DNA of 51,136 nt, taken from the NCBI GenBank assembly GCA_903831595.1, contig CAIKXY010000010.1, forward strand, positions 1 through 51,136, read 5' to 3'. The position numbers and the translations under genes are program-made. A model generated the notes under the pieces. That model saw only the letters and a list, made by a program, of their open reading frames with translations, did no database searches and had not been told where the DNA came from. Positions 47,152-51,136 of the stretch are shown one piece after another (position 1 is the stretch's first letter; the number at the start of each line of letters is the position of its first letter). Source of the DNA: an uncultured bacterium. Its GTDB lineage: Bacteria > Patescibacteriota > Minisyncoccia > Phycocordibacterales > GWA1-40-21.

Positions 47152-48975
47152 ATGGAAAACCTCGACTTCCTCAAAAATAAATACAATCTACACAATACAG
47201 AAGAAGTAGAAAAAGCAGCAAAACGCACAGAAAAGCGCACTGGAGAAAAAGTGCCACAAAATCCAAAAGATCAGATACAAAACTACCTAGACAGATTCAC
47301 CGAAATTATTGAAAGAAAGGAACCAGGGAAAAGAGAAAGGGGAATAGAAGCTATAAAAAGTGTTATAGATGACAAGTACATTATTAAACCTGAAGAAATT
47401 CCAGAAAGCTATTATGAAAACCAAAGGCGAATCGCTCGTGAACAAGGCCATGGAGATGTTGAAATAACCGATGAGGCAAGAAATCAACTCAAAGAAGTCA
47501 TAATAAAAGATCAAAAAGATTCTCTAGACAACTGGATTGACTACCTATCATCAAAAGATGCCACATATCCAGACTGGCTCAAGTATTTTGCTATTAGAAA
47601 TCTTCTCGGAATGGGAGAATATGATAAAGAAAAGAAACAATTCACTAAAAGATCAAAAGGCACAGTAAAGCCATTCCCAGACATAAACAGAGAAGCATTA
47701 GCATATGTACTAGATGCAATAGAGAAGAAACATAAAGGAATACCAAACGATAAAGACCCAGAATTCCAGGCTCTTCTACGAGGAGAAAATTTTGCTAAAC
47801 TCTATGCATGGGCTATAGACAAAGCTACACCAGAATCGGAGAAAGGACTTACAAACATAAAGGGTGAATGGGTAAAGTATAGACAAGGCAAAGACCACAT
47901 GCCACTCGTAGAATCTTTGCAAGGTCATGGAACAGGATGGTGCACAGCAGGAGAGTCAACAGCAAAAGCTCAACTGGAAGGCGGTGACTTCTATGTATAT
48001 TATTCAGAAGATAAAAATGGAAAATCAAATGTTCCAAGAGCTGCTATTCGTATGCAAGGAAATGAAATAGGTGAAGTCAGAGGTATAGGAGCAGACCAAA
48101 ACCTAGACCCATACATTGGTGATGTAGTAAAAAAGAAACTTACAGAATTTCCAGATGGAGACAAATACAAAAAGAAAGAAGCTAATATGAAACTTCTTAC
48201 TCAAATAGATAACAAAACAAAACTAAAACAACCTCTTATAAAAGATGAACTCATTTTTCTATATGAAGTAAACACTGAAATCGAAGGCTTTGGATATCAA
48301 AGAGATCCTCGCATAAAAGAAATAATCGACCAAAGAAATCCAAAAGAAGATGCACCTATAGTTTTTGATTGTCAGCCAAATCAAATCGCATATTCTGAGA
48401 AAAAAATAAATAAAGATACAAAAGCTTATGTTGGACCTCTATTCAAGGGAATATTCCAAACAAACATTGACCATATAGGAACTTCTTTCCCAGAGGGAAT
48501 GTTGAAAAAGATGGAAGCTGAAATTGGTGGAAAAAATAAAAAAGAACTCGAGAAAGAACTAAAGGAAAATAAAGTTTGGATTTCGGATTATGCTAAAAGC
48601 ATGATGAACAATTCTGATTTCACTACATCAAAAAAATTAGAACAATTAAATCTCGCTCGTATCACTGTAAAATCTCTCGGTTTTCCAAATGGCGCCACAA
48701 CTGATGAAATATACAAAAAAGCGGAAGAACTTGGTTTAGAATTATGTCCAGCAGAAGTCGGTCCCCAGCTTCGTTTGCAGTATTTGGACCAGCCAAATGG
48801 AGAATATATTTTTATAGGAATGAAACAAATTTCTGACTCCGTTGGCTACCCGAGCGTGTTCAATGTGCTCCGCTACGACGATGGCAGGCTGGAGCTCGAC
48901 GGCCGCAGCGCTAAGCCTGACGATAGGTGGGGTGGCGGCCGCGGGTTTGTGTTCCGCATGCCTCGCAAGTCTTAG
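47152..48975 (+). CDS. DGR-2 variable (target) protein
   Basis: 607 aa with no signal peptide. The C-terminal approximately 47 codons are VR2. The last ~100 aa resemble the C-terminus of the DGR-1 target. Confidence 0.85.
   Translation: MENLDFLKNKYNLHNTEEVEKAAKRTEKRTGEKVPQNPKDQIQNYLDRFTEIIERKEPGKRERGIEAIKSVIDDKYIIKPEEIPESYYENQRRIAREQGHGDVEITDEARNQLKEVIIKDQKDSLDNWIDYLSSKDATYPDWLKYFAIRNLLGMGEYDKEKKQFTKRSKGTVKPFPDINREALAYVLDAIEKKHKGIPNDKDPEFQALLRGENFAKLYAWAIDKATPESEKGLTNIKGEWVKYRQGKDHMPLVESLQGHGTGWCTAGESTAKAQLEGGDFYVYYSEDKNGKSNVPRAAIRMQGNEIGEVRGIGADQNLDPYIGDVVKKKLTEFPDGDKYKKKEANMKLLTQIDNKTKLKQPLIKDELIFLYEVNTEIEGFGYQRDPRIKEIIDQRNPKEDAPIVFDCQPNQIAYSEKKINKDTKAYVGPLFKGIFQTNIDHIGTSFPEGMLKKMEAEIGGKNKKELEKELKENKVWISDYAKSMMNNSDFTTSKKLEQLNLARITVKSLGFPNGATTDEIYKKAEELGLELCPAEVGPQLRLQYLDQPNGEYIFIGMKQISDSVGYPSVFNVLRYDDGRLELDGRSAKPDDRWGGGRGFVFRMPRKS
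48829..48968 (+). repeat. DGR-2 variable repeat (VR2)
   Basis: Ungapped alignment to TR2 (offset 446). There are 22 mismatches, all at TR adenines. The invariant 3' block is gtttgtgttccgcatgcctcgcaa. Confidence 0.9.
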
Positions 48976-49185
48976 AACTTATCTCTTTTATAACTTAGCT
49001 CTAGCACTTAGATACTTAGAACTTTGTTCTTGAAAATTTTTTGATATAATAATTTTGGTAGTAGGTGAATATGCGAGAGATTACGATTTCTCGCTACCGA
49101 ATCCAGTATCCATAAGTTGAGAATGTTTGTGATTATGATTTCAAACAGAGGGCTTATGTAGACGCTTCAATAAAAATGAAGATAC

Positions 49186-49213
49186 TTGGTGCAAAATATT
49201 ATGGCATTATTAT
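49186..49213 (+). promoter_or_regulatory. candidate promoter of the TR2 RNA
   Basis: TTGGTG (49186-49191), a 16-nt spacer, then TATTAT (49208-49213). The -10 element ends 62 nt before TR2. Confidence 0.4.
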
Positions 49214-49274
49214 GCCAAATTAGATTCAATCCCGAGAGCATTCAAGGGGTGGTGGTAAAGAAGATATTTTGCAC

Positions 49275-49414
49275 ATTTCTGACTCCGATGGCAACCCGAA
49301 CGTGTTCAATGTGAACCGCAACGACGATGGCAAGCTGAAGCTCAACGACAACAACGCTAAGCCTGACAATAGGTGGAATGACAACAACGAGTTTGTGTTC
49401 CGCATGCCTCGCAA
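49275..49414 (+). repeat. DGR-2 template repeat (TR2)
   Basis: AAC/AAT-rich copy of VR2, seen in the track as the spurious ORF ...SDSDGNPNVFNVNRNDDGKLKLNDNNAKPDNRWNDNNEFVFRMPR. Confidence 0.9.
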
Positions 49415-49426
49415 CTCTTTTCATTT

Positions 49427-49457: not shown

Positions 49458-49775
49458 CCCCCACACCTTTCATTTTATCCTCTCAAATCATATAATGATG
49501 GTTATGTTTTATCTCTATATATTGAAAAGCACTAAGGATGATAATTTGTATATAGGCTCTACAAATGATTTGAGACGAAGACTTTCTGAACATAGTAATG
49601 GAAAAGTACGTTCAACAAAATCTCGTGTCCCATTTGAACTTAGATATTACGAATCATTTTTCAAAGAGATAGACGCAAGGAAAAGAGAGTTTTCGCTTAA
49701 AAAAGATGGTAAAGCACTCGGACAATTGAAAAGAAGAATTTCAGAAAGTCTTAAATAAAATGAAAGGTGTGGGGG
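49458..49775 (+). mobile_element. 318-bp TIR-bounded element encoding a small GIY-YIG protein, inserted in DGR-2
   Basis: 21-bp perfect terminal inverted repeats (49458-49478 cccccacacctttcattttat / 49755-49775). They are flanked by 9-bp direct repeats, ttttgtttt (49449-49457) and ttttgtctt (49776-49784). The element is absent at the homologous DGR-1 site. Confidence 0.75.
49495..49758 (+). CDS. GIY-YIG nuclease family protein (small UPF0213/YhbQ-like)
   Basis: MMVMFYLYILKS...NLYIGSTNDLRRRLSEH...YYESF...KREFSLKK shows GIY-YIG motif spacing. It is about 87 aa, and the stop codon lies within the right TIR. Confidence 0.8.
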   Translation: MMVMFYLYILKSTKDDNLYIGSTNDLRRRLSEHSNGKVRSTKSRVPFELRYYESFFKEIDARKREFSLKKDGKALGQLKRRISESLK

Positions 49776-50110
49776 TTTTGTCTTAATATCTGCCCATTCC
49801 AACCACCTAGCATTTTTCCAATTTCATCTAAATGGAGAGATAAAGCGATATACTTTTTATTATCCAAAGATTTTGTTTCCCACAAAACCATAAGCAAGAT
49901 TTTCAATGTGTCTAATTTTCTGATGGCAACAGATATATAAGTTCTTTTTTCTTCTTTTGGCAGGAAACTTGCTACAGAAATTGCTTCTATGATTTCTATA
50001 AATAATGTGTCAATTCTATTTCCTAGAGAATATCTATGTGGTTTGGGCAGAATTTGATAATATTCATACCAAAGAATATAAGCAGTTTTTACTTTCTGTA
50101 AAAGTGGCAA
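49751..50110 (-). CDS. avd: DGR accessory variability determinant (Avd-like), 5' end ambiguous
   Basis: Paralog of 36961..37260 (…RKLDTLKILL…EIGKMLGGW…). It has a TTG start in the track. The frame continues through the G9 tract, and upstream ATGs (50136, 50139, 50145) are out of frame by one base. Confidence 0.8.
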   Translation of the reverse strand: MPLLQKVKTAYILWYEYYQILPKPHRYSLGNRIDTLFIEIIEAISVASFLPKEEKRTYISVAIRKLDTLKILLMVLWETKSLDNKKYIALSLHLDEIGKMLGGWNGQILRQNPHTFHFI

Positions 50111-50123
50111 AAGTTTCTGTAGA

Positions 50124-50132
50124 GGGGGGGGG
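50124..50132. repeat. G9 homopolymer at the avd 5' end / RT upstream region (DGR-2)
   Basis: Direct reading: ttctgtaga + G9 + tcat. Confidence 0.95.
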
Positions 50133-50168
50133 TCATCATAGTCATGTTTTTTGTGTTGTAATTATATT

Positions 50169-51136
50169 ATGTTTAAAATTCAATTCATTAATAAATATAA
50201 AGATATCATTGAAATGGAAAATCTCCTAGAAGCGTGGAGAGAATTTGTTGTAGGTAAAAAATTAAGAAAGGATGTGGAAGATTTTCAAAGACATTTAATG
50301 AATAATATTATTTCACTTCATAAAGATTTAGAGACAAAAACATATAAACATTCTTCCTATGAGGCATTTAATATTTCCGACCCAAAACCAAGAAATATAC
50401 ATAAAGCAAAAGTGAGAGATAGACTGCTACATCATGCTTTATACAGGAAACTTTATCCGTTTTTTGATAAAACATTCATAGCTGATTCGTATTCTTGCAG
50501 GGTCGGAAAGGGAACTCATAAAGCGTTGGAGAGATTTAAGTCTTTTTCAAATAAAGTATCAAAAAATAATACAAAAACGGTTTGGATTTTGAAATGTGAT
50601 ATCAGAAAGTTTTTTGCTTCAATAGACCAAGAAGTTTTGTTGAGAATATTGAATAGTTATATACCAGATAAAGATATTATATCTATTTTATCTGAAATTA
50701 TTGGTAGTTTTTATTCCACTGAAAAAGGTAAAGGTTTGCCTCTTGGAAATCTAACGTCACAACTTTTGGTAAATATTTATATGAACGAATTTGACCAATT
50801 TGTAAAACACAAACTAAAAGCAAAATATTATATACGATATGCAGATGATTTTGTGATTTTTTCTGAGAATAAAAATAAATTAGAAGACTTACTCTTATGT
50901 ATAAGAGTGTTTCTTTGTGAAAAATTAAAATTAGAATTGCATCCAAATAAAGTTTTTATAAAAACTCTGGCCTCGGGCGTTGATTTTCTTGGTTGGGTGA
51001 ATTTTTCTGACCATAGAGTTTTGAGAACAACTACAAAAAGAAAAATGTTTAGAAATATAAAAATGAAAGAAGGAAAAATAGAGACGGTTCAATCATATCT
51101 TGGGTTGTTGAGCCATGGGAATGCTCAAAAATTGAG
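50169..51136 (+). CDS. DGR-type reverse transcriptase, 3' end outside window
   Basis: Open frame from ATG 50169 to the window edge. The translation MFKIQFINKYKDIIEMENLLEAWREF...LPLGNLTSQLLVNIYMNEFDQF...IRYADDFVIF is highly similar to RT 37356..38339. It is missing from the ORF track because no stop codon lies in the window. Confidence 0.9.
   Translation, partial: MFKIQFINKYKDIIEMENLLEAWREFVVGKKLRKDVEDFQRHLMNNIISLHKDLETKTYKHSSYEAFNISDPKPRNIHKAKVRDRLLHHALYRKLYPFFDKTFIADSYSCRVGKGTHKALERFKSFSNKVSKNNTKTVWILKCDIRKFFASIDQEVLLRILNSYIPDKDIISILSEIIGSFYSTEKGKGLPLGNLTSQLLVNIYMNEFDQFVKHKLKAKYYIRYADDFVIFSENKNKLEDLLLCIRVFLCEKLKLELHPNKVFIKTLASGVDFLGWVNFSDHRVLRTTTKRKMFRNIKMKEGKIETVQSYLGLLSHGNAQKL

Follow-up and report, generated by a model that had tools for sequence, protein, structure and literature searches.

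The 51,136-nt contig CAIKXY010000010.1 from an uncultured Patescibacteria bacterium, referred to here in its entirety as the window, carries two diversity-generating retroelements (DGRs). The one at its 3' end, DGR-2, is best explained as a complete DGR of a Patescibacteria clade that is distantly related to the neighboring cassette (DGR-1), has received a GIY-YIG insertion, and carries a simple repeat in its avd gene that we infer to act as a switch. We assign this reading as a whole a probability of roughly 0.88. In order along the window, DGR-2 comprises a target gene with a C-terminal variable repeat (VR), a structured RNA element, the template repeat (TR), a hairpin, avd on the minus strand and a reverse transcriptase (RT) gene on the plus strand, with avd and the RT gene divergent. 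A preliminary description of this DNA had proposed a second autonomous DGR at this site, and the presence of a separate TR, VR, avd and RT agrees with that proposal.

TR2 and VR2 were compared by script, positions 47000-51136 of the window were read, and the TR scan covered the whole window on both strands. The two repeats align without gaps and differ at exactly 22 positions, all 22 of which are adenines in TR2 (15 A>G, 4 A>T and 3 A>C). None of the 97 non-adenine positions is changed, compared with 22 of the 43 adenines, and the chance that 22 mismatches would all fall on A is (43/140)^22 = 5e-12. The gapless alignment with adenine-only mismatches given in the preliminary description was reproduced in full, its individual mismatch examples and invariant 3' block are both correct, and no non-adenine mismatch is present in the VR2/TR2 core. 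In the reading frame of the target, the TR2 adenines occupy only codon positions 1 (19 adenines) and 2 (24 adenines), leaving position 3 without any, with AAC accounting for nine TR2 codons, and the 17 altered VR2 codons are all non-synonymous.

The homology of VR2 with TR2 spans 48826 to ~48973, slightly beyond the block noted earlier, and the first non-adenine difference, a C in the TR at 49415 and a G in the VR at 48969, marks its 3' boundary. TR2 and TR1 each have one VR, and scanning both strands of the window revealed no further VR for either. In DGR-1, the ends of VR and TR (36477-36496 vs 36935-36954) contain one non-adenine mismatch and several differences in the last 12 nt (CCCACAACTGTAA vs CCCGAAACTAAAA), which makes the 3' boundary of DGR-1 less clean than that of DGR-2.

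The diversified gene belongs to a family of 3204 homologues in Patescibacteria, the best 120 of which are 58-93% identical over the full length. Members are strongly conserved over the N-terminal 560 aa and variable in the tail. The homologue at 93% identity differs from the DGR-2 target at 17 of the 48 VR residues, compared with 23 of the 559 residues elsewhere, and all 17 of its VR-residue differences fall on TR2 codons that contain adenine. This pattern is indirect evidence that DGRs have driven divergence of the family in nature. No Pfam match was found for the target, and its full length gave no sequence match in the PDB and no significant Foldseek match (full-length model at a predicted local distance difference test score, pLDDT, of 84.9). 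For an AlphaFold2 model of the C-terminal 188 aa (pLDDT 95.7), the top 14 Foldseek matches in the PDB were all C-type lectin domains, each of them weak (E 0.02-0.4, template modeling (TM) score 0.41-0.46), and the same comparison returned no match to a solved DGR variable protein. A lectin-like C-terminal fold is therefore a model-based suggestion, not a proven assignment. Within the N-terminal domain, a near-invariant motif, GHGTGWCTAGESTA, includes an invariant Cys (window 47900-47960, residues ~258-271), and GTGWCTAG is invariant within the N-terminal 560 aa. Conservation of GHGTGWCTAGESTA and its Cys suggests an enzymatic or cofactor site in the target.

The RT gene places DGR-2 among known elements. 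RT-2 matches Pfam RVT_1 (E=3e-26), contains the LGNLTSQ and YADD motifs when aligned with RT-1, and in that alignment lacks only the final 8 residues of RT-1, the window end cutting the gene ~8 codons before the expected stop. Truncation or degeneration of RT-2, which the preliminary description had named as grounds for doubt, was not seen within the window, where 322 codons are intact and ~8 fall outside. Look-ups for the missing 3' end with the exact target protein gave only short contigs that ended at the G run described below, and the closest RTs were 75% identical in the GTDB scan and 79% in the metagenome scan.

Relatives of RT-2 were collected by scanning one genome per GTDB species, which yielded 563, and the best 80 were aligned with both window RTs. 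These best 80 all come from Patescibacteria metagenome-assembled genomes and are 65-75% identical to RT-2; over the GTDB and metagenome scans together, identity to Patescibacteria DGR RTs, of which there were hundreds, is 65-79%. RTs in this 65-79% range sit beside A-biased TR/VR pairs, and the layout VR, TR, avd(-), RT(+) with A-biased mismatches was found in 57 of the 63 loci having enough upstream sequence. In related loci the VR lies ~300-400 nt upstream of the TR, and the TR ends 25-40 nt before the avd 3' end. Roux et al. 2021 (PMC8144416) described 'clade 2' DGRs as restricted to Patescibacteria, cellular, mostly aquatic, and equipped with targets without recognizable domains. Because its best RT matches are from Patescibacteria, its neighbors are housekeeping genes and its target has no Pfam domain, DGR-2 can be assigned to clade 2. 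By sequence comparison it is a member of this clade specific to Patescibacteria (CPR, for candidate phyla radiation), and nothing essential differs. The clade was reportedly first described by Paul and coworkers in Nature Microbiology in 2017.

The preliminary description had also treated RT-2 and avd-2 as close paralogs of the DGR-1 genes with long near-identical DNA stretches in the RT, as would follow if DGR-2 had recently been copied from DGR-1 nearby and its TR and target had diverged afterwards. The two cassettes do have the same gene order and the same position of a G run, and parts of the RT genes reach 72-88% DNA identity. Near-identity was nevertheless an overstatement, as identity in the best stretches peaks at 88% (131 nt) and drops to 74% (300 nt) and 72% (200 nt), and the RT proteins are only 66% identical. 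Among the 80 aligned RTs from other genomes, 68 are closer to RT-2 than RT-1 is, leaving RT-1 at rank 69 of 81. In a neighbor-joining tree with these 80 RTs, all from other Patescibacteria genomes, RT-1 and RT-2 are not sisters. Avd-1 and Avd-2 share 39% identity, while Avd-2 shares 60-79% with its counterparts in most other genomes. The two targets show no relationship in either length or sequence, and by eye DGR-1 seems to have another subtype of the structured RNA, resembling that of one related locus (L042). The common layout is clade-wide and not specific to this genome.

The position of the cassettes adds to this picture. DGR-2 is chromosomal and lies 12.8 kb from DGR-1, and the ~9 kb between the cassettes encode a methyltransferase, SIMPL, NusG, ribosomal protein L11, dCMP deaminase, thymidylate kinase (Tmk), dUTPase, an ABC ATPase and a flavoprotein. 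Since these core housekeeping genes separate the two cassettes, they argue against a local duplication, and a recent one we consider highly improbable. Thus, DGR-1 and DGR-2 appear to be distinct lineages of one clade residing in one chromosome and not recent local duplicates, and separate acquisitions are a more likely origin than an ancient duplication. The earlier remark that two DGRs so close together are unusual holds insofar as such arrangements are uncommon; they are already documented, and 12 cassettes with two RTs appear in one survey, which remarks on how few DGRs contain two RT sequences (PMC11661182).

Comparison of the two cassettes had been expected to expose indels, and it revealed a discrete insertion. 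The distance from TR to avd differs by 342 nt between DGR-1 and DGR-2, which is explained by a 318-bp GIY-YIG element together with its target duplication, and the avd-RT spacers differ by a further 17 nt in length. The terminal inverted repeats of the element are 21 bp long and identical at 21 of 21 positions. When the 318 bp and one 9-bp copy of the duplication are removed, the result reproduces the empty site of a related locus (L004) and restores an Avd tail ending in GGWNGQILKQNSPK (family-typical KQNSPK), matching two other loci (L006 and L013). Avd-2 now ends in GQILRQNPHTFHFI, with its C-terminal 10 residues rewritten by the element. None of 80 related loci carries an insertion at the homologous site, and searches of the window and the fetched related loci turned up no further copy of the element or its terminal repeats. 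These comparisons point to a transposon-like insertion just past the TR hairpin that altered only the Avd tail, and one that is probably recent because its terminal repeats are still identical.

At the other end of avd-2, the reading frame is interrupted. The gene product matches Pfam bAvd at 42.7 bits against a gathering cut-off of 40, yet the only upstream ATGs, at 50145, 50139 and 50136, are all out of frame across a run of nine cytosines, and no in-phase upstream ATG, GTG or TTG exists for the body of the gene. The frame begins ATG ACT ATG ATG A-C9 and would be in phase only with C10 (or C7). The avd-1 gene of DGR-1 begins ATG AAC TAT AAA GTG A-C10 and would be in phase only with C9. The window has a GC content of 33.5%, and these G9 and G10 runs are its only G/C runs of at least 8 nt. 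A third gene for an Avd-like four-helix bundle (34460-34825, plus strand; Pfam 23S_rRNA_IVP E=3e-37, with a weak bAvd match) adjoins the methionyl-tRNA synthetase (MetRS) and TatD genes just upstream of DGR-1 and is attached to no TR or RT.

The same site was surveyed in the window and 160 related loci, giving 142 junctions between avd and RT that could be classified. Like both avd genes of the window, about 80% of the related loci have a G run or some other short, hypermutable repeat there. Across 763 kb of related loci, 63 of the 68 G/C runs of at least 8 nt sit at the avd/RT junction. A G run is found at 112 of the 142 junctions, with lengths from G7 to G14 and positions ~15-45 nt upstream of the RT ATG; other junctions carry (GT)n, (CTGG)n, (TGGC)n, (TTGG)n, (ATTG)n, (TTCG)n or heptanucleotide repeats, and a few have interrupted tracts. 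The repeat units that replace the homopolymer are 2, 4 or 7 nt long and occupy the identical site, directly before the Avd N-terminal motif (L/I)LP(V/L)LQK (LLPVLQK). A start of avd downstream of the run was considered and rejected, as the codon at that place varies (TTG, TTA, CTA or ATA) and no start is conserved. Outside the avd/RT junction, one of the related loci, L005, carries two additional G10 runs (L005:3404, 5253), and it has a second, distant RT-like ORF (L005:5976-7025) that is 31% identical to RT-2.

Frame was scored after removal of exact duplicates. Poly-C loci were in frame in 28 cases and out of frame in 77 (~27% in frame), the latter evenly split between both wrong frames, and loci with other repeats were in frame in 7 cases and out in 7. 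Loci lacking a repeat were in frame in 8 cases and out in 1 (Fisher p=3e-4; p=0.007 after collapsing near-duplicates). In one locus (L028), CCGCCGCCG still encodes Pro-Pro-Pro, and an ATG 48 nt upstream shares its frame. The in-frame state of repeat-less loci (8/9) and the retention of Pro-Pro-Pro by synonymous codons in L028 indicate that the tract is translated.

Run length also differs between otherwise near-identical contigs. Nine pairs of contigs, none from the strain of the window, have 250 nt of identical flanks, and in three of them the run differs in length while the sequences are otherwise 99.4-99.9% identical: G11 vs G10 (L052/L123) and G11 vs G8 (L032/L108), each with one other single-nucleotide polymorphism (SNP) in ~2 kb, and G8 vs G10 (L157/L150), with 15 VR substitutions and 2 other SNPs in ~3 kb. 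In this last pair, which is 99.4% identical over 3.15 kb, the 15 substitutions are confined to 94 nt of the VR (L157:3028-3121), and the pair reads as a natural case of recent homing in the clade.

Together, these features carry the comparative signature of a contingency locus, that is, of a phase-variable switch in the avd 5' end. We infer that slippage in repeat length gates translation of Avd, and hence mutagenic homing. By the consensus sequence of the window both cassettes would be OFF, subject to an uncertainty of +/-1 nt in run length. The broader proposal, in which throughout the clade the avd repeat, placed where the divergent avd and RT starts overlap, shifts Avd stochastically between frames and at any time only a subpopulation undergoes homing, with both window cassettes OFF and an uncatalogued structured RNA 5' of the TR, strikes us as an even call. 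A literature search combining DGR or Avd with phase variation, homopolymers, slippage or simple repeats returned nothing relevant, although it did not cover the founding CPR DGR paper; as far as we have checked, the avd repeat switch has not been described.

Several observations weigh against the reading of DGR-2 as a complete, switchable cassette. The ~8 last codons of RT-2 lie beyond the window and were not recovered. The best lectin match of the target tail (E=0.02, TM 0.43) is a weak assignment. VR2 is identical in three other public assemblies, which argues against rampant ongoing diversification, or else these assemblies sample the same population. Because Avd-2 is broken in frame in the consensus and altered in its tail by the insertion, DGR-2 could be inactive. 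Two other assemblies break at the run, and homopolymer lengths from short reads are error-prone by +/-1 nt. Finally, a random phase of the repeat is equally expected if slippage of RNA polymerase restores the frame.

Contig breaks of this kind would be expected if the G runs were sequencing or assembly artifacts, arising from two-color poly-G calls or miscalls, and avd simply started at TTG 50110. Of the two contigs from the same strain, one (L001:5045-5078, ena:ERZ27229613:k141_299124) ends in the Illumina adapter AGATCGGAAGAGC after three G's of the run and the other (L002) stops just before it, and errors of +/-1 nt are common. An artifact does not account for the unique sequence that flanks the run on both sides, for its recurrence at the homologous position, shared by both cassettes and by 112 of 142 loci that come from many projects and years, or for the independent assembly that reproduces the G10 of DGR-1. 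Differences of 2-3 nt, the other repeat units at the same site and the lack of a conserved start codon past the run speak against it as well, and we regard this explanation as extremely improbable.

A real G run could instead have another role, either allowing RNA polymerase slippage that produces every frame whatever the run length and thereby constitutive low levels of Avd, or serving as a spacer in a divergent avd/RT promoter, as in hifA/hifB of Haemophilus, where a variable spacer lies in overlapping divergent promoters. A random phase in the consensus is also expected under transcriptional slippage, and further points in favor are the location of the run, typically ~16 nt and here 37 nt upstream of the RT ATG, and a TAnnnT hexamer directly after it in many loci. 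Transcriptional slippage is, however, unlikely to mend the frame in loci with 4- or 7-nt repeats, where ON and OFF states are split 7 to 7, and the in-frame repeat-less loci (8/9), one with synonymously preserved Pro-Pro-Pro, imply a translated tract. Such a role is unlikely on balance, though a serious contender.

DGR-2 might also be a fossil, killed by the avd frameshift and the GIY-YIG insertion, with the 22 TR/VR differences as a frozen record of past activity. The absence of any upstream ATG, GTG or TTG in phase with avd-2, the rewritten Avd tail and the identity of VR2 in three other assemblies are all compatible with loss of function. A dead cassette is harder to reconcile with 0 of 97 non-adenine differences, an RT ORF that remains open for 322 codons and conserved RNA elements that are intact. 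The element inserted past the conserved hairpin and spared the four-helix core, and its 21/21 identical terminal repeats mark the insertion as recent. Moreover, an out-of-frame avd is the majority state (~73%) among relatives that show fresh VR diversification, for example L157/L150. We consider a fossil cassette doubtful and retain the reading of DGR-2 as a complete element with a putative avd switch.

The regions flanking TR and VR contain three conserved non-coding elements, all of them intact in DGR-2. Directly upstream of TR2 lies a predicted structured RNA, which was aligned across 46 loci (DGR-1 and L042 were left out). Compensatory double changes occur at 19 of its 24 predicted pairs, and the closing helix P1 covaries heavily, with one P1 pair split into 23 U-A and 23 C-G; the P1 arms were also recovered as a perfect 11-nt inverted repeat. 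Rfam gave no gathering-score match in the window, and nothing beyond a chance match came from scanning 48900-50200 at permissive settings. The structured RNA upstream of TR1 (~36740-36825) is divergent, and by eye the internal hairpin in DGR-1 and L042 is of another subtype.

On the other side of the TR, all loci examined share a pattern of ...CGCAA followed by CTCTYTTCATTT, a hairpin and TTTTGTTTT. The hairpin is represented by 45 distinct arm pairs with a fixed CTC/GAG base and covarying upper pairs, and next to TR2 it is terminator-like, having also been matched in a terminator scan. By analogy, this flank may correspond to the 'Sp' region of Bordetella. When 48900-50300 was scanned for sigma-70 promoters, 6 sites were found compared with 4.8 expected from shuffling, which is no excess.

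Directly 3' of the VR, the motif CTT[A/T/G]G (CTTDG) recurs with a spacing of mostly 7-8 nt. Its density after the VR is 3.3 per 80 nt (63 loci) compared with 0.22 in background windows, a ~15-fold difference, and this array may be a target-site recognition signal of the clade, for which it is a candidate. The counterpart in DGR-1 lies at 36498-36534. No GC-rich hairpin or cruciform like that of Bordetella phage BPP-1 was found 3' of VR2 (minimum free energy -3.4 kcal/mol). Both the structured RNA and the CTTDG array appear to be conserved clade-wide, and as far as we have checked neither has a prior description in the searched literature.

Table 1. Coordinates of DGR-2 features and of the matching G run in DGR-1. 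Positions are those of the window; ORF, open reading frame; TIR, terminal inverted repeat.
Feature	Position	Strand	Details
DGR-2 target gene	47152-48975	+	607-aa ORF; VR is the last 48 codons (560-607)
VR2	48829-48968	+	adenine-only mismatches to TR2
CTT[A/T/G]G (CTTDG) array	48969-49030	+	motifs at 48971, 48994, 49007, 49015, 49022
Structured RNA element (predicted)	49189-49274	+	~86 nt; closing helix abuts TR2 5' end
P1 of structured RNA	49189-49200 pairs with 49263-49274	+	12 bp
P2 hairpin of structured RNA	~49202-49217	+	
P3 hairpin of structured RNA	~49231-49251	+	
TR2	49275-49414	+	140 nt; fixed offset of 446 nt from VR2
TR2 3' flank	49415-49457	+	CTCTTTTCATTT, hairpin 49427-49448, then TTTTGTTTT
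Inserted element	49458-49775		318 bp; TIRs 49458-49478 and 49755-49775
9-bp target duplication	49449-49457 and 49776-49784		TTTTGTTTT and TTTTGTCTT; flanks 318-bp element
GIY-YIG ORF	49504-49758	+	84 aa; Pfam GIY-YIG E=1e-15
avd-2	49751-50145	-	Pfam bAvd; body open from TTG 50110
G9 run (C9 on avd strand)	50124-50132		inside avd-2 5' end, 37 nt upstream of RT-2 ATG
RT-2	50169-51136	+	ATG start; RVT_1; open for 322 codons to window edge
G10 run of DGR-1	37320-37329		counterpart of G9, at avd-1

By analogy with BPP-1, the cassette would operate as follows. A template RNA of ~270 nt (~49189-49457), comprising the structured element, TR and hairpin, would be bound by an RT-Avd complex and reverse-transcribed, with nucleotides misincorporated at random opposite adenines. 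The resulting cDNA would then replace the VR, with a 3' boundary near 48969, such that up to 27 codons of a putative C-type-lectin-like surface could be diversified. Slipped-strand changes in the length of the avd repeat would switch Avd, and thus homing, ON and OFF.

DGR-2 itself is ordinary, one more member of a clade known since 2017, and its analysis corrects the idea of a recent duplicate. The two divergent cassettes and 160 relatives together expose three conserved features that appear to be undescribed: the avd repeat, the TR-linked RNA and the CTTDG array. If the repeat does gate Avd, this would account for the way in which bacteria with very small genomes keep self-mutagenesis affordable, and for the frequency with which gene callers miss or truncate avd in such genomes. 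Run length modulo 3 would then be a simple genotype that could be set against VR diversity in metagenomes. Together, the structured RNA and hairpin define a putative minimal template RNA of ~270 nt for reconstituting a non-Bordetella DGR.

Compared with clade 2 as defined by Roux et al., DGR-2 shares RT identity of 65-79%, a cellular aquatic setting, a domain-less target and the VR-TR-avd(-)-RT(+) order, and what it adds locally is the internal GIY-YIG element and, at a distance of 12.8 kb, another, divergent cassette. The inserted element resembles passengers of the miniature inverted-repeat transposable element (MITE) type or those mobilized by insertion sequences (IS) in its perfect 21-bp inverted repeats, 9-bp target duplication and small size (318 bp), but it has no transposase, and its ORF is that of an 84-aa GIY-YIG nuclease. 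Homing endonucleases of the GIY-YIG type normally lack inverted repeats and target duplications and move by homing.

The mechanistic paradigm for DGRs is that of Bordetella phage BPP-1 (mtd-VR, avd, TR, Sp, brt). DGR-2 shares with it adenine mutagenesis, a VR at the 3' end of the target, a non-adenine mismatch at the presumed 3' homing boundary, an Avd four-helix-bundle partner, an RT with LGxxxSQ and YxDD motifs, and a putatively lectin-like target domain, for which the match here is weak. It differs in the placement of avd, which lies between TR and RT but on the other strand, and in a structured RNA upstream of the TR where BPP-1 has a long downstream spacer, with only ~45 conserved nt (hairpin and U-tract) after the TR. 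DGR-2 also has a CTTDG array after the VR, in contrast to the GC-rich initiation of mutagenic homing (IMH) sequence and short hairpin of BPP-1, and is chromosomal while BPP-1 is phage-borne.

The closest parallels to the avd repeat are the contingency loci, such as the poly-G/C tracts of Neisseria, Campylobacter and Helicobacter and the tetranucleotide repeats of Haemophilus. As in these loci, the repeat sits just within an ORF at its 5' end and has a unit length not divisible by 3, its length is polymorphic between near-identical strains, in- and out-of-frame alleles are mixed, and the type of repeat turns over at a fixed site. Such simple-sequence-repeat loci are treated in two articles (PMC3315296, PMC5953494). 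In DGR-2 the gene that would be gated is an accessory subunit for mutagenesis and not a surface antigen or restriction-modification gene, the hosts are non-pathogenic, ultra-small bacteria, and the ON and OFF states were read from consensus sequences.

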